A DNA stretch of 64,000 nucleotides from Alphaproteobacteria bacterium (lineage in GTDB: Bacteria; Pseudomonadota; Alphaproteobacteria; CAAHEQ01; UBA3637), in the NCBI GenBank assembly GCA_015062385.1, contig SUUT01000006.1:7587-71586 (forward strand), given 5' to 3'. Below are positions 1-50,084 of this stretch, piece after piece (position 1 is the first letter of the stretch; the number at the start of each line of letters is the position of its first letter). Made by a program: the position numbers and the translations under genes. The notes below the pieces were generated by a model. The model was not told the DNA's origin. It worked only from the letters and a program-made list of their open reading frames with translations, and did no database searches.

Positions 1-1
1 T

Positions 2-8572: not shown

Positions 8573-8588
8573 GACAAACAATGATATA

Positions 8589-9127: not shown

Positions 9128-9129
9128 TA

Positions 9130-9147
9130 TAGTTTTACTATAAGTTC
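9130..9147 (+). promoter_or_regulatory. conserved phage intergenic motif, copy 5 of 6
   Basis: atatagttttactataagttc, tandem with copy 6, which lies 25 nt downstream. Confidence 0.5.
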
Positions 9148-9154
9148 AGATATA

Positions 9155-9172
9155 TAGTTTTACTATAAGTTT
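9155..9172 (+). promoter_or_regulatory. conserved phage intergenic motif, copy 6 of 6
   Basis: atatatagttttactataagttt. Confidence 0.5.
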
Positions 9173-9357
9173 TGCTTTTGTTCGTTGTCCGAGACTTGTT
9201 TTATCGTTTTTGGGGGCGTAAAAAGTATTTTAAAGTAATAAAAAAATGTCAAAACAGATACGAATAATGTATCTGAATGATTTGTTCAATCAATTTTTAT
9301 TCAAATTTCAAGTGTGTCAAAAATAAATTTAAATTTTTTAAAAAAGGAGAAAAAAAT

Positions 9358-10056
9358 ATGAGTAAAGCAATTGGTTCGGTCTTAGGTACAAATGTTAAAG
9401 TTGATACCTCTGCCGGAGAGAATTATTTATCTTATTTAAAGTCTTATGATACGTCAACAGCCGATAAAACAAACAACTTAATGGCTCAGGAAGCGTATCA
9501 GTTGGCTTCTGATTTATCTAATCAAGGGCTGGTTTCTGCCGTTTCGGCTTCTGATGAAGCCCGTCAGCGGATGGAAAATGCAACATATCAATCATATATG
9601 GATCGCTTAATCCCGCAACATCAACAACAAATGGCTGATTTGGAAACCCGTTTGGCTAATCAGGGATTGTCGGTTGGTTCACAGGCTTATCAAACAGCCG
9701 TTAATAATTTAATGCAAGAACAAAATGATTCCATTAATCAAGCGACTTACAAGAGCGTTATTGCAGGTCAGGATGCTTATACGCAATCCCTAAATGATGC
9801 CATTGCAGCCGGTAATTTTACAAATACGGCTTATCAAACGGCAATTAATCAGATGAATGCACTCTTGCAAAATAGCCCAACGGGGTATCAAAATCAAGCA
9901 AATATCTATGCTGTTCAACAGGGTGTTGCACAACAACAGGCATCGGCAAAACAGCAAAGCTTAAACAATATGTTTGGCGTGTTGGGTGGGGCTTTAAATG
10001 CAGCGACAACCGCTTATGGTTATTCTCAAATGGGTAAAACTGCTTCAAACGGTTAA
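9358..10056 (+). CDS. Q/A/N-rich helical virion protein (ejection/scaffold-like)
   Basis: The start is taken at ATG 9358, behind aaggagaaaaaaat. The 232-aa product is low-complexity and coiled-coil-like. The call is by position only. Confidence 0.4.
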   Translation: MSKAIGSVLGTNVKVDTSAGENYLSYLKSYDTSTADKTNNLMAQEAYQLASDLSNQGLVSAVSASDEARQRMENATYQSYMDRLIPQHQQQMADLETRLANQGLSVGSQAYQTAVNNLMQEQNDSINQATYKSVIAGQDAYTQSLNDAIAAGNFTNTAYQTAINQMNALLQNSPTGYQNQANIYAVQQGVAQQQASAKQQSLNNMFGVLGGALNAATTAYGYSQMGKTASNG

Positions 10057-10203
10057 TCGGTGTTAACCTCAAATAATGCAGTATATCAGAGTGTTTTTTT
10101 TCTGTAATTTAAGTGTATCTGCATTTGATATTATTTATTTTTAATCAATAAATTAAATAGAATTATTAATGCTTAACATTAATTTAAAAAAAGGAAGGTT
10201 AAA

Positions 10204-11454
10204 ATGACAAATTTTAATTATGTTAATGATATTTTAAACGTTAATCGTCATGCTCCGAAAGCATTGGATTTAACGGGGATTGCCTCATTGCCGAATGCGG
10301 CGATAAATGGTTTACGAAATGGTATGGAGTTGAAAAATACAGTTTTGAAACAGCAGTCAACAGCAGATAGTTTATCTCGTCAACAGGCAGAAAACGATGT
10401 TCGGCGACAATATTTGCAAAATCCGGCTGCAAATACCATTTATGAGCCGTATTTTAACATCCGTCCATCTGGTCTTTCTCAAATGAATGGATATACAGTT
10501 AACGGCACAACTCAATCAGGTACCGATCGTTCTCGGATGATGCCGTCTAATGGATCTTCAATCAATAGTCGGGTAAATACATCCCGTACGCAAATGAGTG
10601 CAAAAGATAAAGAGTGGAATCGATTGACTGAGGCTGGTTTCGCTCCGCAAGAAATTATGTCTGTCTTATATCCGAAAGGTGTTCAAAGTAATGCTGTACA
10701 GCAAGAAAATCAAAAATCTTCAACAATGTTTGATAGATATGATTATTTTAACAAAAACAATCAAATAAATGACATTTCTAATCCAGTGAATGAAGATAAT
10801 TTTTCATCTTCAAACTTGATGAATGTTGGTCAAAATGTTTTTGTTTCTCCTCAACGTACACCGGTGGATTTTTCGGCTGTTGGAACAGATATGACAGTTC
10901 CTTCCGGCATGAATTTTGATACATCGGATGTGGCTAATCCGACAGATTTGAATACGTCATATCGACAAAATGCGTTTTCTTTTCCGCAATCGGATATCGT
11001 AAATGAAAAAACAATACCTATGCAATCGTTTATGTCCACATCTGAAACGGGGCCGATGAGTATGGATACAGTAAGTGATACATTAAATGCTTCCAATCCG
11101 GTAAGTAGTGAAATAAATACCTCAACGATGAGTGGAACAGTTGATAATGCATTTGTGTCAACAGGAACATCATCTGCTCCTACGGTTGAAAATATGCTAT
11201 CGACTTCCCCTGTCGGTTTAGGTGGAATGCATACAACAAATAATTATTCCTCCGAAACACAAAAATCAAGCGGACAAACATCATCGGTTGAAACTCAAAG
11301 CATGCATATGATGCCGTTTAAAACACAAGATGAATTGTATGCTTTTCAAGAAGCTGCTTTGGGAGCTGATTCTTCTTTAACCCCTGATCAACGCAATGCG
11401 CGTATTTTACAGGGCGTGCCAGTGTCTGATACATTTTGGAACAGCTTTGTTTAA
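10204..11454 (+). CDS. S/T/N-rich low-complexity virion protein (ejection/internal protein candidate)
   Basis: The 416-aa ORF has an RBS (aaggaaggttaaaatg) and extended S/T/N/M-rich segments. No family was recognised. Confidence 0.4.
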   Translation: MTNFNYVNDILNVNRHAPKALDLTGIASLPNAAINGLRNGMELKNTVLKQQSTADSLSRQQAENDVRRQYLQNPAANTIYEPYFNIRPSGLSQMNGYTVNGTTQSGTDRSRMMPSNGSSINSRVNTSRTQMSAKDKEWNRLTEAGFAPQEIMSVLYPKGVQSNAVQQENQKSSTMFDRYDYFNKNNQINDISNPVNEDNFSSSNLMNVGQNVFVSPQRTPVDFSAVGTDMTVPSGMNFDTSDVANPTDLNTSYRQNAFSFPQSDIVNEKTIPMQSFMSTSETGPMSMDTVSDTLNASNPVSSEINTSTMSGTVDNAFVSTGTSSAPTVENMLSTSPVGLGGMHTTNNYSSETQKSSGQTSSVETQSMHMMPFKTQDELYAFQEAALGADSSLTPDQRNARILQGVPVSDTFWNSFV

Positions 11455-11473
11455 CCGAATAAAAACCGTTAAC

Positions 11474-11503
11474 TTCCCCCGAAAAGATGTTTTTTCGGGG
11501 GAA
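11474..11503 (+). terminator. strong intergenic hairpin (ttcccccgaaaa-gatgtt-ttttcgggggaa)
   Basis: A 12-bp stem is read directly from the sequence. There is no clear T-run, so it may be a processing or attenuation hairpin rather than a true terminator. Confidence 0.4.
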
Positions 11504-11522
11504 AACGTTTAGGGAGCGGAAA

Positions 11523-11813
11523 ATGGACAGGAGAAGAAAAATGCCAAAATCTATGGATAGATTTTATGAAGTTCTGCATAAAACGGTGACCGGTTTTTTA
11601 ATTCCGCTTGTTTTTTATTTGTTGGGTCAAATCAATGAAGTGAAAAAAGAGGTATCAATTTTTGAGTTGCGGGTTGCCAAAGATTCAGCACAGTATGCCC
11701 TGCGAGATGATATCGTGCGGGTAGAAACAAAAATTGATGAGTTAAAAACACTTATCATACAGGAGGTTAAACGAAATGAGCATTATTACACCGGCTTTAA
11801 AAAAGCGGATTAA
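11523..11813 (+). CDS. holin or i-spanin-like membrane protein
   Basis: The start is taken at ATG 11523, behind gggagcggaaa. It has one TM helix (VTGFLIPLVFYLLGQI) followed by a coiled coil. It lies immediately upstream of, and overlapping, the endolysin gene. Confidence 0.5.
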   Translation: MDRRRKMPKSMDRFYEVLHKTVTGFLIPLVFYLLGQINEVKKEVSIFELRVAKDSAQYALRDDIVRVETKIDELKTLIIQEVKRNEHYYTGFKKAD

Positions 11814-12201
11814 ACGACATGAAGGGATGCGTCTTAAACCGTATCATTGTCCGGCTGGACGACTGACAATTGGCATTGGGCGTAATTTAACTGATGTTGG
11901 TATAACAGAAACGGAAGCTGAGTATTTGTTGGAAAACGATTTGCAATCGGCCGAAAAAAATTGTTCGGATGCGTTTATTTGGTATGAAAAACTGGATAAT
12001 ATTCGAAAAGGCGTGATTGTGGAAATGGTTTTTAATTTAGGATTTGCGGGATTTTTGGGATTCCGCAAATTGATAAAAGCGTTAACGATAGGGGATTATC
12101 TGACCGCTTCGAAAGAAATGTTATCCAGTCGTTGGGCAGCACAGGTGGGGCATCGGGCAGAGGTATTATCGTTAATTATGAAAACAGGAAAGGAGTATTA
12201 A
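11776..12201 (+). CDS. T4-type (GH24) phage lysozyme/endolysin
   Basis: HEGMRLKPYHCPAGRLTIGIGRNL aligns with T4 lysozyme [24 protein letters not shown], including the catalytic Glu and Thr. EMVFNLGFAGFLGF...SRWAAQVGHRAEVL aligns with NMVFQMGETGVAGF...SRWYNQTPNRAKRV. Confidence 0.9.
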   Translation: MSIITPALKKRIKRHEGMRLKPYHCPAGRLTIGIGRNLTDVGITETEAEYLLENDLQSAEKNCSDAFIWYEKLDNIRKGVIVEMVFNLGFAGFLGFRKLIKALTIGDYLTASKEMLSSRWAAQVGHRAEVLSLIMKTGKEY

Positions 12202-12202
12202 C

Positions 12203-12343
12203 ATGAAAGACAGACTATTATTATTTTTAAAAACAAACAAAAAGAAAATGATAACATTTATCGTAACGGGTATTTTAGCGGCGTTAGGTGTAGTAGCCGA
12301 TACAACGGCGTTAACTGAGTTATTGTCCGTTATGATACCATAA
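12203..12343 (+). CDS. 46-aa single-TM protein (holin/antiholin/spanin-like), below the ORF-track cutoff
   Basis: The ATG lies 2 nt after the lysozyme stop, with aggag 8 nt upstream. The product is MKDRLLLFLKTNKKKMITFIVTGILAALGVVADTTALTELLSVMIP, with a basic N-terminus and one TM helix. Confidence 0.5.
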   Translation: MKDRLLLFLKTNKKKMITFIVTGILAALGVVADTTALTELLSVMIP

Positions 12344-12354
12344 AAGGAGTGAAA

Positions 12355-13011
12355 ATGATGATTGTACAGCAAACGAAACCGGCGTTTTATCCGATAACGA
12401 CGGAGGATGTGTCGGCAACGGATATGCCGGAATGTCATCAATTAAATAATCGGATACATTCAGTTGAAAATAAGCTCAAAAAGCAAAATCATTCATCTGA
12501 AATTGTTTCGTCTGTTCAGCGAAAGCCTCAAAAAACTTCCGTTGAACGAAATTTGCAATCAGTTCAGGAAAAAAAGGTTTCTGTTTTTTCCGAACAGGAT
12601 GTATTGCCATCTCAGCGGAAAGCAGAAATGCTTTCCGCTGAACAAATTCAGTGTACAAAGCAAAAACAAACAGATGTTTGTTCTGTCACACAGGATGAAC
12701 CGACCCTTTTTTCATATACGATTGCAGACAGTTTTTCAAAATTATGTGATATTCAGGAAACTGCTTTATCCATGGCACCCAAACCCGATTTTACGGCAGC
12801 GTTAAAGTCGGAGGAATTAAAAGGAAAACTGTTTGGATTATATACGGATAAAAAGGATAAAGAAAAAGGATTTGAAAATTTACCGCAGTTGTTGGTTGAA
12901 TTTATTGAGGTTGATAAAACGGAATATCGAACATCATTCGGCAATGCAACAGCAGATAATAATCATTCGACAGAGGAAAATAGTTTGCCATTTACGGTAG
13001 AATATGTTTAA
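12355..13011 (+). CDS. hypothetical phage protein upstream of the large terminase (small-terminase position)
   Basis: The ATG lies behind aaggag. The 218-aa product has no recognisable motifs. Only its position suggests a small-terminase (TerS) role. Confidence 0.3.
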   Translation: MMIVQQTKPAFYPITTEDVSATDMPECHQLNNRIHSVENKLKKQNHSSEIVSSVQRKPQKTSVERNLQSVQEKKVSVFSEQDVLPSQRKAEMLSAEQIQCTKQKQTDVCSVTQDEPTLFSYTIADSFSKLCDIQETALSMAPKPDFTAALKSEELKGKLFGLYTDKKDKEKGFENLPQLLVEFIEVDKTEYRTSFGNATADNNHSTEENSLPFTVEYV

Positions 13012-13022
13012 GGAGTTTTTTT

Positions 13023-14348
13023 ATGCCAAAAATCAAGGTGTGCATACCGGCGGTTTTTCGTCCGTTGTTAAGTCAGAAAAAACGCATTAAATTTTATTAC
13101 GGCGGACGGGCAGGGGGAAAATCTTATGCTTTTGCCGATAGTTTACTGATTTTAGGGCGGATGAAAAAATTATTTATTGTCTGTTTAAGGGAGATTCAGG
13201 GATCCATTCGGGATTCTGTTCATAAATTGTTATCTGATCGTATTTCGTATTATCAGTTAAGTGATTATAAAGTGACTGATACAAAAATTGAAAATAAAGT
13301 GACCGGAACAGTTTTTGTATTTAAAGGTTTGCGAGATCAGGATCCGCAAAAAATAAAATCATTGGAGGGAGCAGATATTGCTTGGATTGAAGAAGCACAA
13401 ACCATTACCAAAAAATCATGGGATATATTAGAACCGACCATTCGTAAGCCGAATTCCGAAATTTGGATATCCATGAATCGAGAACAGGAAAATGATCCTT
13501 TATGGGTAGCGGTGGCAGTACAACCGGATGAAAATACGCTGGTTCAAAAGGTTAATTATACAGATAACCCCTTTTGTCCGCAGGAAATGAAAGATTTAGC
13601 CGATAAGTGTCGAGAGAAAAATCCGACGGATTATGCACACATTTGGTTAGGTGAACCCATTTTAAACGGAAATAATAAGCTGATAGATTTGCAGTCCGTT
13701 AAAAAGGCTCAATCGGGTCATCTGATTGAAACATCCGGTTCGTTGATTATCGGATTGGACATTGCCCGTTTTGGGGATGATGAAACTGTTTTTTGTTTCA
13801 GGCGGGGGCGTATATGTGAACGGTTTGAAGCCTATCGGAAAAAAGATACGGTAGAAGTGGCAAATATTGTCACGCATTACATTCAGCAATATCAACCATA
13901 TCGCATTTTTTTGGATATTGGCGGACAGGGTGCCGGTGTGTATGATATTTTAACGGACAGAGGATTTCGGGAAGTTGTTCGGGGTATATCGTTTGGGGAA
14001 AAAGCCATTCAATCAGACAGATACGTGAATAAACGGGCAGAAATGTGGGACGGTATTCGTCAATGGTTGACGGGAACGAGTCCTGTTTATTTGCCGAATG
14101 ATACAGCTATTACGGATGATTTATGTGATGTGAATAAAAAATACGATCGGTTGGGACGATTACAGTTGGAAGAAAAAGAAAGTTTAAAACGCCGGTTAGG
14201 ACGTTCTCCGGATTGGGGAGATGCATTAGCGTTAACGTTTGCAGAGCCGATATTTGAACAAGATACGCCGAATTTATATACGAATGATACGGATAAAATC
14301 AGCATTGAAACCTTGTTTTGCGATAAAAGGGAAGGTGCTGGTTGGTAA
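13023..14348 (+). CDS. terL: phage terminase large subunit
   Basis: It has a Walker A-like YYGGRAGGKSYAFA and an ATPase-coupling LREIQGS / IAWIEEAQ (Walker B-like). The C-terminal nuclease-like half has GLDIARFGDDETVF and FLDIGGQGAGVYD. Confidence 0.8.
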   Translation: MPKIKVCIPAVFRPLLSQKKRIKFYYGGRAGGKSYAFADSLLILGRMKKLFIVCLREIQGSIRDSVHKLLSDRISYYQLSDYKVTDTKIENKVTGTVFVFKGLRDQDPQKIKSLEGADIAWIEEAQTITKKSWDILEPTIRKPNSEIWISMNREQENDPLWVAVAVQPDENTLVQKVNYTDNPFCPQEMKDLADKCREKNPTDYAHIWLGEPILNGNNKLIDLQSVKKAQSGHLIETSGSLIIGLDIARFGDDETVFCFRRGRICERFEAYRKKDTVEVANIVTHYIQQYQPYRIFLDIGGQGAGVYDILTDRGFREVVRGISFGEKAIQSDRYVNKRAEMWDGIRQWLTGTSPVYLPNDTAITDDLCDVNKKYDRLGRLQLEEKESLKRRLGRSPDWGDALALTFAEPIFEQDTPNLYTNDTDKISIETLFCDKREGAGW

Positions 14349-14463
14349 TGGGAAAAGTAGGCTGAAAAAGCAGATAAAAGGGATGTGTTTCAGCAATAAT
14401 AAGGGTAGAACGATTTTTTATTAATGAAACACATCTAAAAGGGCAGAAAAAAATCTGCCCTTT
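14316..14463 (+). repeat. 148-bp perfect direct repeat, left copy (terL 3' end plus terminator)
   Basis: Base-for-base identical by eye to 16028-16175. It contains an 11-bp inverted repeat (gatgtgtttca ... tgaaacacatc) and the gggcaga/tctgccc terminator. Confidence 0.9.
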
Positions 14464-14692: not shown

Positions 14693-15817
14693 TTATAAAC
14701 CGGCTTCAATTATATCCATATACTTTTTGAATATGTATTTTTTATATCTTTTTGTTTGATTGGTTTGGACTAATAATCCTTTTTCCACAAATCCATTTAC
14801 TAATTTATTTGCGGTTGCTTTACTAACTTGTAATGATTTCTCAACTGCTGAAATCTCTAATGTTGGTTTGACGAATAAAAAGTCAAAAAGTTTATACTCA
14901 TTTTCTCCTTTTAAAGTATGGGATAGTTCATTTTTTAACGAATTAATTTGAGTAGTTGTTTGCATAATTTGTTTGCAAACTATTTCTATTCCTTTTAAAA
15001 AGAACAAAATCCAAGTCTCAAAATCATTATTTTCTCTTGTTTTTGTTAAGAGAGTATAGTATTCTTGTTTATGTTTTTTTAAGTATAAACTCAAATATAA
15101 TGTCGGTTGTTCCAAGATGTTTTTGCTTATTAAAAATAAACTGATTAATAAACGTCCAATTCTTCCGTTTCCATCTAAAAATGGATGAATGGTTTCAAAT
15201 TGATAGTGTATTAATGCTAATTTAATAACATCGGGAAGTGTTCCTTCATAGATATATTTTTCTAAATCACTCATTAAATTAATTACGGTATCTTCTTTGG
15301 GTGGAACATAAATTGCGGTAGAGGGATTATTTCCGCCAATGAAATTTTGACTTCTTCTGAATTCGCCGGGGGTTTTGTCGTTTTCTCCACCTCTCACATT
15401 ATTCATTAAAATATTGTGACATTCTCTTAATAGCCTTGATGATAAAGGTAATCCACCATTTTTGATTTGATTGGTGGCATAATTTAAAGCATGCAAGTAG
15501 TTTTTCACTTCTATAATATCTACTTTTATATCATCATTATTATTGTTTTCATTTTGTAAAATTTCCACCATGGTGGATTGTGTCCCTTCTATCTGTGATG
15601 ATAATAATGCTTCTTTTAATGCATATTTTTCAATTAAAAGTTCCGGATTAGGTAATAAAATATTTAATGCATTTAATTGTCCTAATGCCCAAGTTGCACT
15701 GGAGATTGCTTGATATAGATTTGACAAATCCAATTCTTTTTCTATTTGTTGTAATGCATTTGGTTGAAAAGTGTCATATCCTCTGCCAGAATTTACTTTA
15801 CTTCCGGAAATTGGCAT
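14693..15817 (-). CDS. Fic-family protein (class II, N-terminal inhibitory helix, C-terminal wHTH-like domain)
   Basis: It has the Fic motif HPFLDGNGRIGR and the inhibitory motif S-x-x-x-E-G in LLSSQIEGTQS upstream. The C-terminal ~70 aa are winged-helix-like. Confidence 0.9.
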   Translation of the reverse strand: MPISGSKVNSGRGYDTFQPNALQQIEKELDLSNLYQAISSATWALGQLNALNILLPNPELLIEKYALKEALLSSQIEGTQSTMVEILQNENNNNDDIKVDIIEVKNYLHALNYATNQIKNGGLPLSSRLLRECHNILMNNVRGGENDKTPGEFRRSQNFIGGNNPSTAIYVPPKEDTVINLMSDLEKYIYEGTLPDVIKLALIHYQFETIHPFLDGNGRIGRLLISLFLISKNILEQPTLYLSLYLKKHKQEYYTLLTKTRENNDFETWILFFLKGIEIVCKQIMQTTTQINSLKNELSHTLKGENEYKLFDFLFVKPTLEISAVEKSLQVSKATANKLVNGFVEKGLLVQTNQTKRYKKYIFKKYMDIIEAGL

Positions 15818-16211: not shown

Positions 16212-18341
16212 CTATTGTATCAAAATCGCTTGTGCGGTTGATGAGAATACATCTATTGATGCATAAAACGTATTGGCAGGTGCTAGATCTTTATTGGTAT
16301 TTACCTGTGCCAATACAACAAGTTGATTACCTTTTGGTTTTTGTAATGCCATTAATAAATGTTGCCCATGATTATCATAGCATCCGGTATCTTGATCATA
16401 ATGAACCGGTACAAAATTTGAAATAGTTGTATTTGTTAAGATTATCTGATTGTTTGTTACAGTTAAACGACCGCTCCATCTTGGACAGCTTCCTAATTGA
16501 ACACTTGTAGAAATATCTGCTTTTTGATTTGTTCCGATTAATTGCCATACACCGGTTGTAATTGTTGTCGGAAAAGTAAATATTAACGAATTTCCTTTGG
16601 TTAATGAATATGTTCCAACATGATTAGCAATATCTTCATAATATCCGCCTGTTTCAATCGAAACGGTTACGGCACACGCTTTATGTTCATCATTCCAAGT
16701 TGCCCCCTCCGGACACGTAATACACGTTCTGCCATTATCATGTGAACCGGTCGGACAAGTACATCCTGTTTGTGTGGCATTTATGATATACGGTGCTGTA
16801 CACGTTGCACAGGTTGTCCCTGTATCATATGTTCCTGTCGGACAGACACATTTATCGCCTTCACGAGTATAGGGGGCAAAGCACATCGGGCCCCAATCCC
16901 GACATAATGCGTAGTGCGGTCCACCATGATAATCCGTAGAAGAGCTTTGATGTGTATTAACTTTGTTTTGAGATAACCAGAAACAGGCTCGTTGACAAGT
17001 CATATTGCCACTCTGACTCCAAGGATTATAGGTAATCCACGGACCACTTGAATATCCGGCATTTATTAAATTGGTTGTAATTATCTTATATACTGAACTA
17101 TCATATCCGCTACATGTTTGGGCCTGATTGTCAATTGCTAGATTGTTTGTACATCCTAAATCAGGAACGGATACCATTTGTTTCCCCAAAGCTGTACAGA
17201 AGTTAATGGCTGATTCCCAACCTTTATTGCCGTCTCCATAATCTTTTTTAGAGAAATAAAAGTTGACACCGTTAATTTTGAAAGTGATGAAATCCAATTT
17301 TTCACAACGAGCATTGCTAAATGTTCCCGTTTCACAAATATTATCCCCCCGTGTACAGAAATAATTTGTATCATTATTGTACAGTTTATGACAATCATCA
17401 TTCGATTCGCATTCATTCGGCGAACATTCTTTACCATTCCAATACGGCGCAGAACTTGGACAGGCAATACATTCGTTTGTATTAACGGCAAAAACCGGTG
17501 TTGCATCCGGACATTTTTCACATTTGTCTGGATTTGTACTGTTCACATTATAAAATGGGCGTTCATCCGGACACGATTTGCAGGTATTATTTGATGTATC
17601 ACAGACAAGGTTCGGAATTTGACACGTACTGTCATCGATGCATTCAACACATTCTTCATTATGCCATACAGGTGTCATATCCGGACAACGACACGTTGTT
17701 TCATCTTCAAACCATTCTTTGGGCGGATAACACCGTTCGCAATTATCTCCAAATTCATATTCGTGACGACAAACACAACCATATGTACCATCTTCTTTTT
17801 GTCGCCATACCATTTTATCGGGGCAGGATTGCGGTTCAATATTTGGATTATCCGTTTCTGTTTCAGTGGTTCCGCCGAAATGACTGTCTGAATTAACAAC
17901 CGGAATTGCATTAAAAGAAAACACCATATTTGTTTTGCTGTTTGGATTTCCGCACGTTCTTGTTAAAATTGAAATACCCATATCATTCAATATACCTTCC
18001 TTTTGAAGGAGTTTTTCACAAACCTTATAAACCACTTTAAATGTCGTTACCTGATAATTACTATTAACCAACTTGACCATGGACTTTTTGTCATCAGGGA
18101 CATATTCGGAAAGTGCTGATTTAATAAACCGATTGACTTCCAATGCATGAGAAGCCCGAGAATCTGTTTGTGCCAATGTTTTGGCTTTTCCGAGAACATC
18201 CTGCACTTTGCCGGCTTGATAAGCCGTTAACGCATATTGGTAAGTAGCAACACCGGCAACAGATAATACACCGATAATTGCCAATACCCCTAGCATTTCC
18301 ACCATACTTCGTCCGGTTTCATTCAGTTTGATTTTAAACAT
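16212..18341 (-). CDS. type IV pilin-like N-terminus fused to Cys-rich ectodomain with lectin-like insert
   Basis: MFKIKLNETG|RSMVEMLGVLAIIGVLSVAG has a Gly, Glu at +5 and a hydrophobic helix. The RBS is gggaggag. It has dense C-x-x-C / C-x-C repeats, a W-x-S-A-x-x-F-C-x-x-x-G module, and a Cys-poor beta-rich C-terminal ~140 aa. Confidence 0.8.
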   Translation of the reverse strand: MFKIKLNETGRSMVEMLGVLAIIGVLSVAGVATYQYALTAYQAGKVQDVLGKAKTLAQTDSRASHALEVNRFIKSALSEYVPDDKKSMVKLVNSNYQVTTFKVVYKVCEKLLQKEGILNDMGISILTRTCGNPNSKTNMVFSFNAIPVVNSDSHFGGTTETETDNPNIEPQSCPDKMVWRQKEDGTYGCVCRHEYEFGDNCERCYPPKEWFEDETTCRCPDMTPVWHNEECVECIDDSTCQIPNLVCDTSNNTCKSCPDERPFYNVNSTNPDKCEKCPDATPVFAVNTNECIACPSSAPYWNGKECSPNECESNDDCHKLYNNDTNYFCTRGDNICETGTFSNARCEKLDFITFKINGVNFYFSKKDYGDGNKGWESAINFCTALGKQMVSVPDLGCTNNLAIDNQAQTCSGYDSSVYKIITTNLINAGYSSGPWITYNPWSQSGNMTCQRACFWLSQNKVNTHQSSSTDYHGGPHYALCRDWGPMCFAPYTREGDKCVCPTGTYDTGTTCATCTAPYIINATQTGCTCPTGSHDNGRTCITCPEGATWNDEHKACAVTVSIETGGYYEDIANHVGTYSLTKGNSLIFTFPTTITTGVWQLIGTNQKADISTSVQLGSCPRWSGRLTVTNNQIILTNTTISNFVPVHYDQDTGCYDNHGQHLLMALQKPKGNQLVVLAQVNTNKDLAPANTFYASIDVFSSTAQAILIQ

Positions 18342-18380
18342 TTGGCTCCTCCCTACAAAAAAACTACTACTTTATATTAT

Positions 18381-18536
18381 AAAAAAAGGTACCTTTTTTT
18401 CCCGCTTCGAATCGAAAGAATCGGATTTTTAAGAAAATGAAAAATTATTGTTTTTATTGAATTGGTTAGTTAAAATCAAAAAAAATGTCAAAATGTGAAA
18501 AAAATTGTTGCATTTATACGTACCTTTTTGTACAGA
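18381..18536 (-). promoter_or_regulatory. conserved upstream element, copy A
   Basis: This is the reverse complement of 27526-27678. It ends in the perfect palindrome aaaaaaaggtaccttttttt (18381-18400). It also contains an A8/T8 tract and the tctgtacaaaaaggtacgta box. Confidence 0.75.
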
Positions 18537-18743
18537 CATATATTTTTTATTATGGCATTCTTTTGAACCTGCCGTCTGTCCTGTTGAACTTGTTTCAACA
18601 TTGCGGATAGAATTGGAATGGATATTTTTTTACCATTATCGTAATGAACCGCTGAAACAAATTCAAGGTTGTTGCTTAAAAGTGTGATAAATAAATGACG
18701 AAAAACTAAAAAGAGGGAAGAATCAGCACAAATAATATGCTAT
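18381..18743. repeat. left arm of a ~360-bp inverted repeat (upstream element plus REP units 18571-18743)
   Basis: The reverse complement aligns with 27322-27678 with only scattered mismatches and small indels, by eye. Confidence 0.85.
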
Positions 18744-21679: not shown

Positions 21680-21843
21680 TCTGTAAAAAAAGGGACGTAT
21701 AATTGCAACACTTTTTTTCACTTTTTAGCATTTTTTTTGATTTTAACTAACTTATTAAACTAAAAGAATAATCTTTCATTTTTGCCGAAAGTTGATTTTC
21801 CCGATTCGAATAGGGAAAAAAAGGTCCCTTTTTGTATACACAA
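21680..21843 (+). promoter_or_regulatory. conserved upstream element, copy D (most diverged)
   Basis: tctgtaaaaaaagggacgtataattgcaacactttttttcac...T8...gattttaactaa...gattcgaatagggaaaaaaaggtcccttttt is collinear with copies A-C. The palindrome is degraded to ggtccc. Confidence 0.65.
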
Positions 21844-21873: not shown

Positions 21874-22242
21874 ATGAAAAAAATACTATTATTAGCAACT
21901 CTTTCTATCATCTTGCCAAGTATAGCATGGGGAGCCTGTGAAGGTGGAGAAGAATTTACCGGTAAAAATGGTCATGTATATTGTAAAAGCAATCAATATA
22001 TGAATTGGTGGAGTGCTTTTGCTTGGTGCAAAGCAAACGGTCGTCATTTAGTGACTTTGGATGAAGCATGCAATAATAATTCTTGGATAAACGGTTGTCC
22101 AAATATTTTTTTAGACGTAGATCGGTTTGGTTGGACTTCAATCGCATCAGGGGATCAACACGCCTATCGTGTTCATTTTAAATATGCCACTGTTAGCACA
22201 GCAGGGAGAGCTGGCGAGTACTGTACTGCTCTTTGCTATTAA
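21874..22242 (+). CDS. small secreted Cys-rich lectin-like protein
   Basis: The start is taken at ATG 21874, behind ggagga. It has a Sec signal (MKKILLLATLSIILPSIAWG|A). NWWSAFAWCKANGRHLVTLDEAC ... EYCTALC parallels GWESAINFCTALGKQMVSVPDLGC ... HYALC in 16212..18341. Confidence 0.6.
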   Translation: MKKILLLATLSIILPSIAWGACEGGEEFTGKNGHVYCKSNQYMNWWSAFAWCKANGRHLVTLDEACNNNSWINGCPNIFLDVDRFGWTSIASGDQHAYRVHFKYATVSTAGRAGEYCTALCY

Positions 22243-27270: not shown

Positions 27271-27490
27271 TCATCATTTTGGAAAAATGCGAAAGATTTT
27301 ATTCAAAATCTTATGACAACAATAGCATATTATTTGTGCCGTTTCTATCCTTTTTTTAGTTTTTCGTCATTTATTATATCACACTTTTAAGTAACAACCT
27401 TGAATTTGTTTCAGCGGTTCATCACGATAATGGTAAAAAAATATCCGTTCCAATTCTATCCGCAATGTTGAAACAAGTTCAACAGGACGG
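27271..27490. repeat. two tandem REP/MITE-like units
   Basis: Collinear with 860-1048 (tcatcattttggaaaaatg..., ...gttgaaacaagttcaacaggacgg). The part from 27322 onward also forms the inverted repeat with 18571-18743. Confidence 0.8.
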
Positions 27491-27678
27491 CGGGTTCAAA
27501 AGAATGCCATAATAAAAAATATATGTCTGTACAAAAAGGTACGTATAAATGCAACAATTTTTTTCACATTTTGACATTTTTTTTGATTTTAACTAACCAA
27601 TTCAATAAAAACAATAATTTTTCATTTTCTTAAAAATCCGATTCTTTCGATTCGAAGCGGGAAAAAAAGGTACCTTTT
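27322..27678. repeat. right arm of the ~360-bp inverted repeat
   Basis: See 18381-18743. Confidence 0.85.
27526..27678 (+). promoter_or_regulatory. conserved upstream element, copy B
   Basis: tctgtacaaaaaggtacgtataaatgcaacaatttttttcacattttgaca-T8-gattttaactaacc...cgattcgaagcgggaaaaaaaggtacctttt. Confidence 0.75.
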
Positions 27679-27726
27679 ATTACACTCACTTTATAAATGC
27701 AACTTTATAATTGTGAGGGTAAGATT

Positions 27727-30700
27727 ATGCGAATCAAACTGAATGAACATGGACGAAGTATGGTAGAAATTCTTGGTGTGTTGGTTGTTATTGGCATATT
27801 GTCTATTGGGGGTATGGTTGGATATGAATATGCCTATTCGGCATATCAAGTACATAAAATTCAGGATGTTTTGCTAAAAGCAAAAGCACAGACAGACACC
27901 AAACGTCGAAATTCCCGAGTGACAAGCATTAATCGTTTTGTTAAAAGTACATTAAGCGAATATGCTCCGGATGATAATACACCAATGGTTTCTTTTGAAG
28001 AAAATGTTCATTATGTCGATTTATACAAAGTATCGGATGTTATATGTAAAATGTTGTTTGAGCGACAAGAGTCATTGAGCCGAGTCGATATTTATCTAAT
28101 AAAACCTAACAGTATCGAAAATTGTACCAATCAAGAAAATCGTTTAGTGTATTCATTTGACAAAGTTGTTGATACAGATGACACGTCAACCTCCGATTGG
28201 ACTGATGAACCACTGAATTCTGATATTCCCGACTGTGAATATCCCCGTCAGATAATAGATGGGATTTGTACTTGTGCCTCTCCGACAATATGGAGTGATG
28301 TATATAACGATTGTATTTGTGATGAAGAAAATTATGCTGATATGTGTGCTGCTTGTCCGTTGCCTCGTAAATGGGTTTCCGGAGAATGTGTTTGTGCCGA
28401 TTCGGATAAGGTTTGGGATGAAGAAAATAACGCTTGTGTTTGTAAAGATGAAAATGCAGAAGAAGATGCATCCGGTAAGTGTATTCTTTGTGAATCTCCG
28501 AATACATACGACCCAATTGAAGATAAATGTGTTTGTATAGAACCGGAATGTGTATGCGAAACACCTCGTCAGATTATAGATAACGAATGTAAATGTTCAG
28601 ATAATCAAAAATATTTAGAAAGTGAAAATATTTGTGTTGAATGTCGTCACAATAATGATTGTATGGATGAGTACTATTGTGATGAAAATCATACCTGTCA
28701 ATTGTTGAATTGTGATGAAATGGGTTTTCCGATACGGTCCTTTTATTGCAGTTATGTGGATTTTGACAGTAATGCCGGTTATACCCCGTGGATGTATGTA
28801 AATAAGTATTATCAAACGGGGAGGGGAAATTGGACACTTGTATCTGGTTGCCAAAATTCTGTTTTGATTGTTCCAAAAGATTTTAAAGGTAATGTTTCTT
28901 TGGGTTCTTGTCGAGTTGGATGGGTTATTATTGACGGACAAAAATATTCATTAAATTCAAGCAAAACAACAGAGATTGATATTAAAAAAGGGAAATATTC
29001 CATTACATTCGGAACATCTCGTAATAAAGGTCGGGAAGGATGTAATATTAATTTCCATAGAAAACTCGGATGGGATATCTGTATGGCAAAGCAAAATAAT
29101 TGTCCTGCCGGATTTTATTGCCAACCTGACAGTCATAAAACAACTATTTGTCCAGTGGGGCATTATTGTCCCCAAAATTCATTTTTAGGGCCTACGCAAT
29201 GTCCGGTCGGAACATATAATCCTGAGGAAGGAAAATCGGCAAAAAGCGATTGTATGACGTGTTCATTAGGTAATTATTGTGCCAAAGGTTCTATTAATCA
29301 AACTCCTTGTCCGGCAGGATATTATTGTACATCAGCTTCTAAACAGACAGCATGTCCGAAAGGAACGTACAATCCGGATACGGGTAAAACGGCAAAATCT
29401 GATTGTATTGTCTGCTCGGAAACATCTTATTGTCCGGCGGGATCTGTACAGGAAATTACGTGTCCCGCAGGATATTATTGTACAGAAACAGCTCAAACAG
29501 CTTGTCCTGCAGGAACGTATAATCCGAATGAGGGCGCAACCGATAAGAGTGCCTGCTTAAAATGCGAATCCGGTCATTATTGCCCGAAAGCTTCCGTTAC
29601 CCAAACAATCTGCCCAAAAGGTCATTATTGTTCTTTGACAACAGCAACGGCTTGTGGGGCAGGTAAATATAACAATTTAGAAGGACAAACAAGTAGTAAG
29701 GCTTGTTTAGCTTGTCCGGCAGGTTCCTATTGTCCAAAAGCATCGGCTGAACCGATAATTTGTCCGAAAGGATATTATTGTTTGGCAAGTAAAGGGGCAG
29801 CAACTGTTTGTCCGAGCGGAACTTATACTGTTGGCGAAGGGGCAACGGCAAAAACAGATTGTATTGCTTGTACAACTGGTATGTATTGTGCAACGGGTGA
29901 AAGCGGAGATTGTCCGGCAGGATATTATTGTCCGACCCCCAAGACAAAAACAGCATGTCCGGTTGGTACTTACAACCCAACACCCGGAGCAACAAGCAAA
30001 GATGCTTGTATTGCATGTGATGACGGTATGTATTGTGCCAAAGGTTCTACCGAACAAACGCCTTGTCCGGCGGGGTATTATTGTACATCTCCTTCAACAA
30101 AAACGGCATGTCCGGCCGGAAAATACAATCCGAATGAACAGGCAACCAGTAAAACAGATTGTATTGCTTGTACAAGCGGATATTATTGTTTAAAAGGGGC
30201 TATTGAACAAACACTGTGTTCTATAGGGTGTTATTGTTCATTAACAAAAGAAACTATATGTTCTGCCGGAACTTACAACTTAAAAACGGGACAAAGCAGT
30301 TCTTCTGCTTGTTTGGCTTGTCCGGTCGGAATGTATTGTCCAACAACAACCAAAGAACCGATTACTTGTCCGGAAGGGTATTATTGTCCGGCAAAATCAG
30401 CGACGGCAAAAGCATGTGCAAGTGGTTATTTTAGTGATGTTGGTGCAAAAGTCTGTACAAAATGTTTAGCGGGGTCTTATTGTCCTGATGGTAAGAACTC
30501 AACAATAAAAACGTGTCCAATCGGGCATTATTGTGCTGCCGGATGTACTTCTCCGGTAAAGTGTGCAGAGGGGTATTATAACGGACAAACAGGACAATCG
30601 GCTTGTACAAAGTGTCCGGCCGGTTCATACTGCTCGGGAACGGGAAATACGCAAACAACGGTTTGTCCGGCGGGGGCATATTGTCCGGCAGGAGCAACTG

Positions 30701-31344
30701 CACCGACATTGTGTGCCGCCGGAAAATACAATCCGAATACAGGCGGAACGGCAAGCACGGCTTGTAAAACATGTCCGGCCGGTTCCTATTGTCCGACAGC
30801 GGGAACAGTGACTCCTATAACTTGTAAAGCCGGAACTTATTGTGTTGCCGGAGCAACGGCAGAAAAAGTATGTGCTGCCGGATATTACAATGGGCAAACA
30901 GGACAATCGGTTTGTACAAAGTGTCCGGCTGGTTCATACTGCTCGGGAACAGGCAATACACAAATGACTGTTTGTCCGGCGGGGGCATATTGTCCGGCAG
31001 GAGCAACTGCACCGACATTGTGTGCCGCCGGAAAATACAATTCGAATACAGGCGGAACGGCAAGCACGGCTTGTTTAAAGTGTCCTGCTGGTTCATACTG
31101 CTCGGGAACGGGAAATACGCAAACAACGGTTTGTCCGGCGGGGGCATATTGTCCGGCAGGAGCAACTGCACCGACATTGTGTGCCGCCGGAAAATACAAT
31201 CCGAATACAGGCGGAACGGCAAGCACAGCTTGTTTAAAGTGTCCTGCTGGGTCTTATTGTGGGAAAGGAACTATAACGCCGATTGCTTGTCCGGATGGAA
31301 AAACATCAGTTGCCGGTTCGGATGCTTTAAGCGATTGTAAATAA
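27727..31344 (+). CDS. type IV pilin-like N-terminus fused to giant ephrin-receptor-like/GCC2_GCC3-like Cys-repeat protein (1205 aa)
   Basis: The start is taken at ATG 27727 (RBS gagggtaagatt). The N-terminus is MRIKLNEHG|RSMVEILGVLVVIGILSIGG. About 14 units of ~50 aa follow, with CPxGxYC ... CPxGTYNPxxGxxxxxxCxxCxxGxYC. Confidence 0.85.
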   Translation: MRIKLNEHGRSMVEILGVLVVIGILSIGGMVGYEYAYSAYQVHKIQDVLLKAKAQTDTKRRNSRVTSINRFVKSTLSEYAPDDNTPMVSFEENVHYVDLYKVSDVICKMLFERQESLSRVDIYLIKPNSIENCTNQENRLVYSFDKVVDTDDTSTSDWTDEPLNSDIPDCEYPRQIIDGICTCASPTIWSDVYNDCICDEENYADMCAACPLPRKWVSGECVCADSDKVWDEENNACVCKDENAEEDASGKCILCESPNTYDPIEDKCVCIEPECVCETPRQIIDNECKCSDNQKYLESENICVECRHNNDCMDEYYCDENHTCQLLNCDEMGFPIRSFYCSYVDFDSNAGYTPWMYVNKYYQTGRGNWTLVSGCQNSVLIVPKDFKGNVSLGSCRVGWVIIDGQKYSLNSSKTTEIDIKKGKYSITFGTSRNKGREGCNINFHRKLGWDICMAKQNNCPAGFYCQPDSHKTTICPVGHYCPQNSFLGPTQCPVGTYNPEEGKSAKSDCMTCSLGNYCAKGSINQTPCPAGYYCTSASKQTACPKGTYNPDTGKTAKSDCIVCSETSYCPAGSVQEITCPAGYYCTETAQTACPAGTYNPNEGATDKSACLKCESGHYCPKASVTQTICPKGHYCSLTTATACGAGKYNNLEGQTSSKACLACPAGSYCPKASAEPIICPKGYYCLASKGAATVCPSGTYTVGEGATAKTDCIACTTGMYCATGESGDCPAGYYCPTPKTKTACPVGTYNPTPGATSKDACIACDDGMYCAKGSTEQTPCPAGYYCTSPSTKTACPAGKYNPNEQATSKTDCIACTSGYYCLKGAIEQTLCSIGCYCSLTKETICSAGTYNLKTGQSSSSACLACPVGMYCPTTTKEPITCPEGYYCPAKSATAKACASGYFSDVGAKVCTKCLAGSYCPDGKNSTIKTCPIGHYCAAGCTSPVKCAEGYYNGQTGQSACTKCPAGSYCSGTGNTQTTVCPAGAYCPAGATAPTLCAAGKYNPNTGGTASTACKTCPAGSYCPTAGTVTPITCKAGTYCVAGATAEKVCAAGYYNGQTGQSVCTKCPAGSYCSGTGNTQMTVCPAGAYCPAGATAPTLCAAGKYNSNTGGTASTACLKCPAGSYCSGTGNTQTTVCPAGAYCPAGATAPTLCAAGKYNPNTGGTASTACLKCPAGSYCGKGTITPIACPDGKTSVAGSDALSDCK
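30571..31233 (+). repeat. near-identical in-frame intragenic repeats
   Basis: 156-bp units at 30610-30765, 30919-31074 and 31078-31233 encode KCPAGSYCSGTGNTQ(T/M)TVCPAGAYCPAGATAPTLCAAGKYN(P/S)NTGGTASTAC and differ at only a few bases. 30571-30765 is repeated at 30880-31074. Confidence 0.9.
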
Positions 31345-48401: not shown

Positions 48402-48423
48402 CAGCTGATATCAAATATTAATG

Positions 48424-48458
48424 CAACCTCGTAAAGTGATACGGGGTTGTCTTTTTTT
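48424..48458 (+). terminator. rho-independent terminator
   Basis: caacctcg-(10 nt)-cggggttg is followed by tcttttttt. Confidence 0.8.
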
Positions 48459-48530: not shown

Positions 48531-48600
48531 GGTAGATGTAGCATAACCGATTTGAATTTTTTATGATTACAACGTAGGTAAGAGATTTCTGTTGTTTGTG

Positions 48601-48756
48601 TCTGTACAAAAAGGTACGATTAATTGCAACACTTTTTTTCACATTTTTGAATTTTTTTTAATTTTGAATAACATATTCAACTAAAACAATAATTTTGCAT
48701 TTTATCAAAAATTTAATTTTGCTGATTCGAATAGGGAAAAAAAGGTACCTTTTTTT
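48601..48756 (+). promoter_or_regulatory. conserved upstream element, copy C
   Basis: tctgtacaaaaaggtacgattaattgcaacactttttttcacatttttgaa-T8-aattttgaataac...gattcgaatagggaaaaaaaggtaccttttttt. The 20-bp perfect palindrome lies at 48737-48756 and is followed by tataat. Confidence 0.75.
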
Positions 48757-48798
48757 ATAATATGTTTTATAAGAATCATTTTATAAAAGGGGAAAGAT

Positions 48799-50019
48799 AT
48801 GAAAATTAAAATTAATGAATTCGGTCGTAGCATGGTGGAAATGCTAGGTGTACTTGCCGTTATCGGGGTATTAAGTGTTGCCGGTATTATGGGATATAAG
48901 TATGGTATGATGAAATATCGGGTCAATGAAACTGTGAATGAACTCAACATTATGGCAAACACATATGGTGTTCAAATGCAACAGATGACAGAAGAACAGA
49001 CAATGCCGACAAACGGAGAATTACTGAGTGAAGAAGGGGCAACGACTCGTATGGGCTATGGATATGAAGTGCTGGGTTTTGATAATCATTTTGAAATAGC
49101 CTTATTGAATATCCCGACAGAAGAATGTGAACAACTCCAAAAAACAGGGTGGGCTATGCCGTATGATATACAAGTTGCAGAAGTGACAGCAGAAAACTGT
49201 GGCGAAATTGTATATTATATCAACAATGATTTAAGCGGATTTGCTCCGGAAACAGATAGTTCAGATGAAGATGATACAGATGAGGAAGAATCTCCGCTTG
49301 ATTGTGGTTTATATGGAACATTGATTGATAATACTTGTCAATGCGATGATGGATATACGGGAAATACATGTAATCGATGTGATACATCAAAAGGGTATAA
49401 GAAACAAGATTCTAATGGTAAATGTTATCAGGATTGTCAAATAACAAACAGTTGTACAAATGAAAATTATTGCAATGGAAATGCATTTCATACGGTAATT
49501 GGAGGCGATGGTCTTTTTTATTGTAAGCATTGCAAAGATGGGTATTGGGGAACACATTGTGAAAATTATGATCCTTCAGGCGATGCTTGTAATGGTCAAA
49601 GTAAAAGTTATGGTTGGATGAATTCTAATGTTGTAAATGGATGTGCTTGTGATAATAATCATTGGGGAGATCATTGTGAATATTTAAAATCAGAAAAGCC
49701 TGAATGTCATGGTCACGGAACAGTATATGGTTATGGACATTGTACTTGTGATGAAGGTTATTCCGGAGAATATTGTGAAAAGGAAGAACCAGCTGTTGAA
49801 TGTGGTATTACACTGGATTCTTATGGTTCTAAAAGTGGGTATATGATATATGAAAATGGTACAGCCTATTGTCAATGTGTCAATGGTTATACCGGTTCAG
49901 ATTGTAAAACTCCGCCAACCCAAGAATGCAAAAATGGTTATTGGGCTTATTATGAGGAAAATCCGACATGCGTTTGTTATAGTGGATGGTCCGGACCTGA
50001 TTGTAATACTCGGAATTAA
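48799..50019 (+). CDS. type IV pilin-like N-terminus fused to EGF-like repeat protein (406 aa)
   Basis: The N-terminus is MKIKINEFG|RSMVEMLGVLAVIGVLSVAG. Repeats CQCDDGYTGNTC, CTCDEGYSGEYC, CQCVNGYTGSDC and CVCYSGWSGPDC fit the EGF-like C-x-C-x2-G-[FYW]-x4-C pattern. Confidence 0.85.
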   Translation: MKIKINEFGRSMVEMLGVLAVIGVLSVAGIMGYKYGMMKYRVNETVNELNIMANTYGVQMQQMTEEQTMPTNGELLSEEGATTRMGYGYEVLGFDNHFEIALLNIPTEECEQLQKTGWAMPYDIQVAEVTAENCGEIVYYINNDLSGFAPETDSSDEDDTDEEESPLDCGLYGTLIDNTCQCDDGYTGNTCNRCDTSKGYKKQDSNGKCYQDCQITNSCTNENYCNGNAFHTVIGGDGLFYCKHCKDGYWGTHCENYDPSGDACNGQSKSYGWMNSNVVNGCACDNNHWGDHCEYLKSEKPECHGHGTVYGYGHCTCDEGYSGEYCEKEEPAVECGITLDSYGSKSGYMIYENGTAYCQCVNGYTGSDCKTPPTQECKNGYWAYYEENPTCVCYSGWSGPDCNTRN

Positions 50020-50031
50020 TACCTAAATGCT

Positions 50032-50057
50032 AGCCTGTTGTTGAAAAATAACAGGCT
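50032..50057. terminator. bidirectional terminator between convergent genes
   Basis: agcctgtt-gttgaaaaat-aacaggct. Confidence 0.65.
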
Positions 50058-50084
50058 GAGTTCTTTTAACAATATCAAAACAGG

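Follow-up and report, generated by a model that had tools for sequence, protein, structure and literature searches.

The 64,000-nucleotide stretch of DNA analyzed here (the window; positions 7,587 to 71,586 of contig SUUT01000006.1 in GenBank assembly GCA_015062385.1) comes from an uncultured alphaproteobacterium of the gut and encodes a 406-residue protein, the target, that on balance we read as a modular, type IVb-like minor-pilin-type protein of the TcpB/CofB kind, displaying a stalk of epidermal growth factor (EGF)-like units. An original prediction, made from the DNA letters, had drawn attention to this gene, and its coordinates are exactly as claimed:

48799..50019, + strand: coding sequence of 406 aa plus stop codon, with an ATG start and an intact open reading frame (ORF)

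The product is identical to GenBank MBE6455476.1 ("hypothetical protein E7014_03395"), which derives from a metagenome-assembled genome (MAG) labeled Alphaproteobacteria bacterium, and the exact protein occurs on at least 16 to 20 metagenomic contigs. The protein comprises a pilin-like module (aa 10-148), a disordered acidic linker (149-165) and an EGF array (166-406); 28 cysteines fall in the C-terminal 246 aa and two in the N-terminal 160 aa. We favor the minor-pilin reading because the family keeps Gly at -1, Glu at +5 and the hydrophobic helix without variation; because the modeled topology appears pilin-like and relatives that match PilS_N or Bundlin are linked to the target by profile alignment; because the sole matches among Protein Data Bank (PDB) sequences, weak ones, are to type IVb pilins and some relatives carry the labels PulG or FimT/FimU; because the EGF module is supported by hidden Markov models (HMMs), by pattern counts compared with shuffles, by Foldseek and by conserved cysteines; because close relatives differ far less from the target in the N-terminal module than in the EGF region; and because TcpB offers a parallel within the established concept of modular pilins.

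The N-terminal part of the protein and the linker that follows it are laid out as follows, the linker including the acidic run SSDEDDTDEEE (aa 153-163) that the original prediction had pointed out:

48799..48825, + strand: putative class-III-type leader peptide MKIKINEFG (aa 1-9), ending in the invariant Gly9, after which cleavage is predicted
48826..48897, + strand: hydrophobic α1N segment RSMVEMLGVLAVIGVLSVAGIMGY (aa 10-33), with Arg at +1 and Glu at +5 (codon 48838-48840)
48826..49242, + strand: pilin-like module (aa 10-148) of a single long helix (≈aa 10-62), a four-stranded sheet and a short helix, with the Cys pair C110/C134, from the AlphaFold2 model and hhalign
49252..49293, + strand: acidic, predicted-disordered linker TDSSDEDDTDEEES (aa 152-165), from the sequence and a predicted local distance difference test (pLDDT) score <50 at residues 149-160

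The leader is short and charged with a glycine at -1, and this Gly9 is invariant in 83 aligned sequences and present in 134 of 136 new representatives of the family. Asn and Glu at -3 and -2 are conserved in 48% and 81%, respectively, and leader lengths across the family are mostly 6 to 12 aa. The RSMVEMLGVLAVIGVLSVAGIMGY segment has a mean Kyte-Doolittle hydropathy of 2.0, and the invariant columns among the 83 sequences are G9, R10, S11, M12, E14, L16, G17, L19, G23, L25 and Y33. Across the family alignments Gly -1, Arg +1, Ser +2, Met +3 and Glu +5 do not vary, the last of these (Glu14) being an invariant column in independent alignments, and positions +9 to +34, a span unconstrained by the search pattern, are mostly 60 to 99% conserved in 362 sequences. 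A search with the first 160 aa returned 563 relatives, all of which carry the signature G/RSM[VI]EMLGVLA[VI]IGVLS (the slash marks the predicted cleavage site), and some of which have precomputed PilS_N or Bundlin domains or bear the source names PulG or FimT/FimU. A survey of related genomes for the leader, proposed earlier as a check, thus found it in all homologs.

Direct assignment of the target to a pilin family was rejected: Pfam and NCBIfam scans of the whole protein and of the N-terminal 150 aa returned no pilin model, and homology was therefore established through intermediates. Among 76 aligned family members, nine match PilS_N (best E=9.7e-21), five match Bundlin (best 6.8e-13) and one matches TcpA, and 11 have weak matches to N_methyl (best 0.003). 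The target profile, built from the target and its close relatives, aligns by hhalign to the PilS/Bundlin-positive members with a probability of 99.7 (E=2.6e-26) over residues 3-121, an alignment that extends well into the head and includes the motif HFEIALLNIPTEECEQL (FEI..IP.EEC). When searched against PDB sequences, the profile matches type IVb pilins only, weakly (E=0.07 to 0.9; PilS 0.07, TcpA 0.1, CofA 0.7), and the alignments to PilS, TcpA and CofA fall on the same head motif HFEIALLNIPTEECEQL. The AlphaFold2 model of residues 1-150 (pLDDT 85.3; predicted TM-score 0.73) has a helix of ≈58 residues (5-62), a four-stranded sheet and a short helix, a modeled topology that appears pilin-like. 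C110 and C134 are the only N-terminal cysteines and form family consensus columns that are ≥90% conserved in 78 long members; on this cysteine conservation they correspond to the conserved head-domain disulfide of type IVb pilins, with the bond itself predicted. Taken by transitivity, these alignments make a good case that the N-terminal module is homologous to type IVb pilins.

C-terminal to the linker, the spacing of the cysteines defines five four-cysteine units and one eight-cysteine unit:

49303..49371, + strand: EGF-like unit 1, four cysteines (C169, C180, C182, C191), CQCDDGYTGNTC, with PROSITE EGF_1 and EGF_2 matches at 180
49378..49560, + strand: eight-cysteine unit from C194 to C254, ending in CKHCKDGYWGTHC, with laminin-EGF-like spacing of the cysteine positions (pLDDT 58-71)
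49588..49677, + strand: EGF-like unit 3 (C264, C282, C284, C293), CACDNNHWGDHC, with an EGF_1 match at 282 and a low-confidence loop at 269-280
49705..49776, + strand: EGF-like unit 4 (C303, C315, C317, C326), CHGHG...CTCDEGYSGEYC, with EGF_1 and EGF_2 matches at 315 and the EGF_Teneurin match
49801..49905, + strand: EGF-like unit 5 (C335, C358, C360, C369), CQCVNGYTGSDC, with a PROSITE match at 358 and a hairpin at 347-360 (pLDDT ≈86)
49927..50004, + strand: EGF-like unit 6 (C377, C391, C393, C402), CVCYSGWSGPDC, with a PROSITE match at 391

PROSITE recognizes five EGF_1 and four EGF_2 matches in the target. The latter lie at residues 180, 315, 358 and 391 and are precisely the four patterns quoted in the original prediction, which had also spoken of looser ones; EGF_1 adds CACDNNHWGDHC at 282 as the fifth, and CKHCKDGYWGTHC at 242 is a looser match. 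Among Pfam models, EGF_Teneurin (38.5 bits against a cut-off of 24.3, best stretch residues 301-329) scores above threshold and EGF_laminin (22.0 against 21, best stretch 355-391) just above it, and three others fall below: EGF_TEN, a long model (53.9 bits, E=2.5e-14, against 65; best stretch starting at residue 244), EGF_2 (21.0 against 22.1; best stretch 168-191) and EGF itself (PF00008; 11.3 against 21.5). An AlphaFold2 model (mean pLDDT 72; 40-88 in the EGF region) places a β-hairpin at each CxC motif, and a Foldseek search against the PDB returns Notch1 EGF20-24 as the best match (E=1.6e-6). The top 50 matches are nearly all EGF-type arrays, among them those of Notch, Jagged, DLL and integrin, with TM-scores that are low because the arrays are flexible.

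An explanation by composition, in which these matches are a by-product of cysteine, glycine and tyrosine richness and no EGF fold exists, could appeal to the four-cysteine character of five of the six units, to the sub-threshold EGF (PF00008), EGF_2 and EGF_TEN scores and to those parts of the model with pLDDT 40-65. We find it hardly credible. When the C-terminal 246 aa were shuffled 20,000 times with their composition preserved, 97% of the shuffled sequences contained no EGF_2 match and none contained more than two, against the four observed, and this result together with the significant HMM matches argues that the repeats are not a compositional effect, the outcome that the HMM and PROSITE check proposed with the original prediction had been meant to expose. 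The structural matches, the invariance of the cysteines in four relatives and a further family member, P0126, which scores 92.7 bits with EGF_TEN (cut-off 65), point the same way. The description of the repeats as canonical EGF has to be amended, and the EGF-like nature of the repeats stands: the six-cysteine pattern (C1-C3, C2-C4, C5-C6) is not satisfied by the cysteine spacing, as the C1/C3 pair is absent in five units, and both PF00008 and EGF_2 stay below their cut-offs. On sequence criteria, the units are thus genuinely EGF-like without being canonical six-cysteine repeats, and the four-cysteine units resemble tenascin/teneurin EGF repeats minus the C1-C3 pair, unit 4 being of the tenascin/teneurin type without C1 and C3.

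The EGF region has few close relatives. A word-indexed search with the C-terminal 246 aa as query returned the target and four bacterial proteins only, which share 54 to 66% identity with this region and keep all cysteines; in the alignment they stop just short of the CxC motif of unit 6. Over the N-terminal 150 aa the same four proteins are 90 to 95% identical to the target, and this combination of a conserved N-terminal module and a diverged EGF region is in keeping with an N-terminal part held constant for assembly and an outer part that diversifies for binding. One of the four, P0125 (E7014_03910), shares its locus-tag prefix with the target (E7014_03395) and was therefore rejected as an ortholog and treated as a paralog in the same genome; its N-terminal 150 aa are 95% identical to those of the target and its EGF region 54%, which suggests concerted evolution of the N-terminal module within the genome. 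P0124 was rejected as a syntenic ortholog, its gene context being different and unrelated, and the best match among genomes of the Genome Taxonomy Database (GTDB), RGIG7750, is not syntenic and reaches only 59% N-terminal and 46% C-terminal identity. The word-indexed search found no close eukaryotic homolog of the EGF region, and a recent transfer of the module from a eukaryote is unsupported, given that the relatives are bacterial only and that the GC content of the EGF region (35.7%) is native to the window (36.2% on average); the origin of the module may be ancient or convergent.

An exhaustive profile search with the N-terminal module yields 6,374 clusters (50% identity) at E≤1e-3, 5,440 at ≤1e-10 and 853 at ≤1e-30. 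In the best 150 clusters, the module lies at the N terminus of proteins mostly of 250 to 900 aa; family members as a whole are mostly 250 to 1,600 aa and cysteine-rich, and the 136 new representatives have a median length of 380 aa with 8.8% cysteine in their C-terminal regions. The EGF_2 pattern occurs in nine of these 136 (two or more times in three), P0126 being one of the proteins that have it, so that by this pattern EGF is a minority module within the family. Pfam recognizes few of the outer domains, with single matches to Mucin2_WxxW, F5/8 type C, EGF_TEN, EB, EGF_alliinase, TNFR_ELAPOR1 and Dumpy DPY, matches that are scattered and, as judged from the models, eukaryote-typical. The proposal that one N-terminal module is combined with different eukaryote-like repeat families is therefore borne out by the profile search and by these Pfam matches. 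We found no curated model for the family, the public record of the target reads "hypothetical protein," and the literature that we searched on the family, on pili of gut Alphaproteobacteria and on bacterial EGF-like proteins holds no description of it.

GTDB species genomes contain more than 586 matching stretches, nearly all in MAGs labeled Alphaproteobacteria, from the guts of ruminants, deer, humans (Hadza), rabbits and other hosts, with five to seven family loci per MAG within just the best 80 stretches. Two loci, L044 and L056, lie in MAGs labeled Lactobacillales and Acidaminococcaceae and are probably mis-binned alphaproteobacterial contigs. In the loci that were fetched, a sample biased towards good matches to the 406-aa query, 72 of 97 complete ORFs reach 250 aa or more and 40 reach at least 400 aa; the cysteine count rises to 122. 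At the other end of the range are small members of 119 to 156 aa, some of which match PilS_N or Bundlin. In related MAGs, clusters of two to five adjacent small members of this length are found in loci L064 (15995-18173), L080 (8998-10001), L087 (7669-8631) and L091 (10001-12168); they are possible sets of major or minor pilins, and no assembly genes lie within 10 kb of any of these four clusters. In one relative, a 132-aa member also stands directly upstream of a BatA/BatB/BatD-like cluster (von Willebrand factor A (VWA), VWA with tetratricopeptide repeats (TPR), and BatD) in L004 (10001-15451) and L005 (33-5483).

If the minor-pilin reading is correct, the target would be inserted in the inner membrane so that its C terminus faces the periplasm, a prepilin peptidase would cut between Gly9 and Arg10, and the EGF units would be oxidized in the periplasm. 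Docking of the helix would then place the protein in a type IV filament, the tip being the most likely site by analogy with Vibrio TcpB and with CofB of enterotoxigenic Escherichia coli (ETEC). In this way the thin EGF stalk would cross the outer membrane and be exposed as a module for ligand binding or as a spacer. Paralogs with the same N-terminal module and different cysteine-rich outer domains would serve as alternative tips or adhesins with different binding specificities.

Several observations weigh against filament display. The target has no match to N_methyl (PF07963), PilS_N or the NCBIfam prepilin models in the scans described above, and Foldseek comparison of the N-terminal model with the PDB returns no pilin in the top 50 (best E 0.05, none significant), a comparison that the long exposed helix probably dominates. 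Arg occupies +1 in 259 of 259 motif-bearing proteins, which is atypical for characterized pilins. The +1 residue of pilins is typically hydrophobic or aromatic (Phe, Met, Leu, Val and others), a feature that is typical and not strictly defining. In all of the ten neighborhoods that were looked up for linked machinery, family genes are dispersed among housekeeping genes, and neither the window nor the 1.27 Mb around ≈110 family genes contains a Walker A motif of a T2SSE-type ATPase or the motif of an A24 peptidase; these scans used regular expressions, not HMMs, and speak to linkage and not to absence from the genome. The annotation of the 64-kb window likewise contains no pilus genes, and the target is not in a compact operon with assembly genes. 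Finally, some family paralogs are very large (1,205 to >1,640 aa) and would be unusual pilus cargo. The designation "pilin leader" in the original prediction is accordingly an indirect reading: Gly -1, Glu +5 and the hydrophobic helix agree with it, and the failure of the N_methyl HMMs on the target, the Arg at +1 and the lack of machinery near any family member speak against it.

These points are the substance of the main rival explanation, in which the pilin-like N terminus is now a plain membrane anchor that is never polymerized; the protein, cleaved or not, would either remain in the inner membrane, its cysteine-rich domain facing the periplasm, or reach the surface by another route. In its favor are the invariant Arg, which coincides with the membrane boundary and on this view would serve on the cytoplasmic side as the "positive-inside" residue of a signal anchor; the failure of the N_methyl HMMs on the target; the absence of assembly machinery linked to the ≈110 genes or to any inspected neighborhood; and outer domains of >1,000 aa, awkward as parts of pilus subunits. 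A plain anchor, however, needs no invariant Gly at -1, no invariant Glu within the helix and no conservation as extreme as the 85 to 99% found at most of the next 25 residues, a pattern that is the hallmark of a filament assembly interface; the small members look like ordinary major or minor pilins; and a rod of at least six EGF units would barely fit the periplasm. We hold this explanation to be rather unlikely.

A second alternative makes the proteins pseudopilin-like parts, or cargo, of a type II secretion system (T2SS)-like or new export system, in which the N terminus is a sorting tag and the outer domain is released or passed to the outer membrane without display on a long pilus. One source does annotate a relative as PulG, leaders of mostly 6 to 12 aa are as found in T2SS pseudopilins and type IVa pilins, and the large paralogous expansion resembles that of sorting-signal families. 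We nevertheless judge it quite improbable, since the homology of the head domain is to type IVb pilins and not to GspG-K, the regular-expression scans found no T2SS genes in any flank, and no second cleavage site or release motif is evident. The minor-pilin reading thus remains the one that we prefer.

The surroundings of the target gene include a conserved upstream element and two further genes of the family, which are listed here in order of the target region, the other copies of the element and the paralogs:

48423-48450: terminator-like hairpin closing the previous gene, upstream of the target
48599..48760, + strand: conserved noncoding element of ≈160 nt that starts at TGTCTGTACAAAAAGGTACG and ends at the palindrome, from alignments of upstream regions
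48737..48756, no strand assigned: perfect 20-nt palindrome AAAAAAAGGTACCTTTTTTT (A7GGTACCT7), 42 nt before the target ATG
48788..48793, + strand: ribosome-binding site AGGGGA, 5 nt 5' of the target ATG, read from the sequence
50031..50058, + strand: terminator-like hairpin 3' of the target stop codon, between the target and convergent polA
≈27523-27685 (+ strand), ≈18378-18545 (- strand) and 21683-21840 (+ strand): other copies of the element
27727..31344, + strand: paralog of 1205 aa with the same leader and helix, 122 cysteines and CPAGxYC-type repeats (alternative start 27697)
16212..18341, - strand: paralog of 709 aa with the same leader and helix, 43 cysteines and an unrecognized outer domain

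The target sits between a hemY-like TPR gene and convergent polA; with a terminator-like hairpin on either side, it therefore stands alone and looks like a single-gene unit. A six-frame scan of the window finds exactly three proteins with a pilin-type leader, the target and the two paralogs listed, which are the genes for which a common leader and helix had been claimed. The 1205-aa paralog adjoins mreBCD-pbp2-rodA and matches Ephrin_rec_like below the cut-off (E=0.005, six stretches); the 709-aa paralog has only a weak N_methyl match (E=0.33).

Copies of the ≈160-nt element stand before each of the three pilin-leader genes, and before one further gene of the window, ending about 40 nt ahead of the start codon in the pilin-leader genes; no Rfam family matches the element. 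TATAAT follows the palindrome directly in two of the three paralog copies, that of the target included. With up to two mismatches allowed, the palindrome has four matches in the window against none expected in shuffles, and among 101 family ORFs in related MAG loci, 16 have an A4+GG..CCT4+ palindrome upstream, where ≈0.5 would be expected from a background of 0.005 per 260 nt. This distribution suggests common regulation: the element may be the operator or promoter of a regulon, or an RNA structure, and the paralogs in this genome appear to be coregulated through it. The regions upstream of the 1205-aa and 709-aa paralogs (27328-27738 on the + strand and 18330-18740 on the - strand) are nearly identical over ≈400 nt, far more so than the coding regions, and this suggests that the 5' region was recently duplicated or underwent gene conversion. 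The gene that follows the fourth copy of the element (21874-22242, + strand) codes for a small protein of 122 aa, which has several cysteines and what looks like a classical signal peptide; a C-type-lectin-like stretch in it, WWSAFAWCKANGRHLVTLDEAC, was a by-eye impression that found no Pfam support and was set aside.

Elsewhere, the window (GC ≈36%) carries housekeeping genes; pyrG, polA, gcrA and a TolC-like gene assign it to an alphaproteobacterium of low GC content. Its first part, 1-14350, is a prophage-like block with a terminase large subunit (13023-14348) and an SU10-type adaptor (3914-4639), as well as three tandem 154-aa ORFs (1811-3177), one of which was compared with Pfam and gave no match. 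A 389-aa ORF in this block (6185-7354, + strand) matches serum amyloid A, a vertebrate family, at 25.2 bits (E=2.3e-5), short of the 30.8-bit cut-off. Between the prophage-like block and the 709-aa paralog, which it adjoins, a gene at 14693-15817 (- strand) encodes a protein of the Fic/DOC family with Fic_N and Fic domains.

With at least 5,440 clusters at 50% identity and several to many genes in each genome, the family is very large, and standard pilin signatures miss it. It is represented so far almost only by MAGs and appears to be restricted to uncultured Alphaproteobacteria that live in the guts of ruminants, humans and rabbits. The function and surface exposure of its members are here predicted from sequence, and the adhesin or host-mimicry role named in the original prediction is putative. 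If they are displayed on filaments, they would be main candidates for attachment to mucus, host cells, protists or other microbes, and the invariant Arg at +1 would extend what is known of the substrate range of prepilin peptidases and of filament packing. A single bacterial carrier that bears EGF-like, ephrin-receptor-like, mucin-WxxW and discoidin modules would also provide a useful case for studying the origin and spread of eukaryote-typical disulfide-rich modules. A bolder proposal, which we regard as speculative and rather improbable, is that gut Alphaproteobacteria carry an undescribed surface-display system with a switchable or recombining repertoire, a counterpart of the variant surface proteins of protozoa. 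It would draw on the combination of an almost invariant 5' end (G/RSMVEMLGVLA) with different cysteine-rich outer domains and on the operator-like element shared in at least some genomes, and it might employ dedicated, unlinked and possibly noncanonical machinery that recognizes the Arg +1 signature.

The EGF-like units of the target find their closest counterparts in animal tenascins and teneurins, with which they share a C-x-C-x2-G-[YW]-x-G-x2-C motif after C-x-GHG; the best Pfam models are EGF_TEN and EGF_Teneurin. Unlike the animal repeats, most of the units lack the C1-C3 disulfide pair and have four cysteines, and inspection by eye revealed no calcium-binding consensus in them.

For the protein as a whole, the nearest parallels are TcpB and CofB. 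TcpB has a 7-aa leader, a mature protein of 423 aa, Glu5, a flexible linker and a disulfide-stabilized C-terminal domain, and it is proposed to sit at the pilus tip, to prime assembly and to pass through the secretin (PMC5207764). Like the target, TcpB and CofB thus combine a short leader, Glu5, a pilin module similar to the major pilin, a linker and a large C-terminal domain held by disulfides; their mature forms are of ≈400 to 500 aa, and tip location, priming of assembly and partner binding are proposed for them (PMC5207764; PMC8179133). They differ in that each is encoded by a single-copy gene inside the pilus operon beside the major pilin, whereas the paralogs among which the target counts are numerous, lie dispersed as single-gene units and have no machinery close by; in the C-terminal module, an EGF array in the target against a β-repeat and a lectin-like sandwich; and in the Arg that the target has at +1.

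More generally, modular pilins, in which functional modules are grafted onto pilins, are a recent and established concept that covers more than 1,200 proteins in 264 architectures (PMC8179133) and accounts for the range of functions that simple filaments acquire. The target has the layout described for them, with an N-terminal pilin module, a short linker and an extra domain (Raynaud et al. 2021), but the modular pilins of that survey were defined by the IPR012902/N_methyl signature, and the target matches none of its member models. In the main text and the supplementary files of PMC8179133 that were checked, EGF, IPR000742, IPR013032 and laminin do not occur. The modular pilins studied experimentally come from a monoderm bacterium, and Streptococcus sanguinis PilB (von Willebrand factor A) and PilC (lectin) resemble the target in carrying a module via a short linker on a small pilin module, by which the filament comes to display it.

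A further parallel is found in the PilV adhesins of the type IVb thin pilus of R64 and Salmonella Typhi. They belong to a PilS-related system and pair an unchanging pilin N terminus with alternative C-terminal segments that set binding specificity. In PilV this variation arises by a shufflon, that is, by site-specific inversion within one gene, whereas the alternatives of the target family are separate full-length genes scattered around the chromosome. On a larger scale, Planctomycetes, Verrucomicrobia and Lentisphaerae encode tens to hundreds of proteins per genome that share a pilin-like N terminus and have unrelated C-terminal parts, and these expansions carry the canonical G/FTLIELLVV motif that N_methyl HMMs detect. 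The target family is distinguished from them by its G/RSMVEMLGVLA signature, by a type IVb-like head and by cysteine-rich, eukaryote-typical modules.

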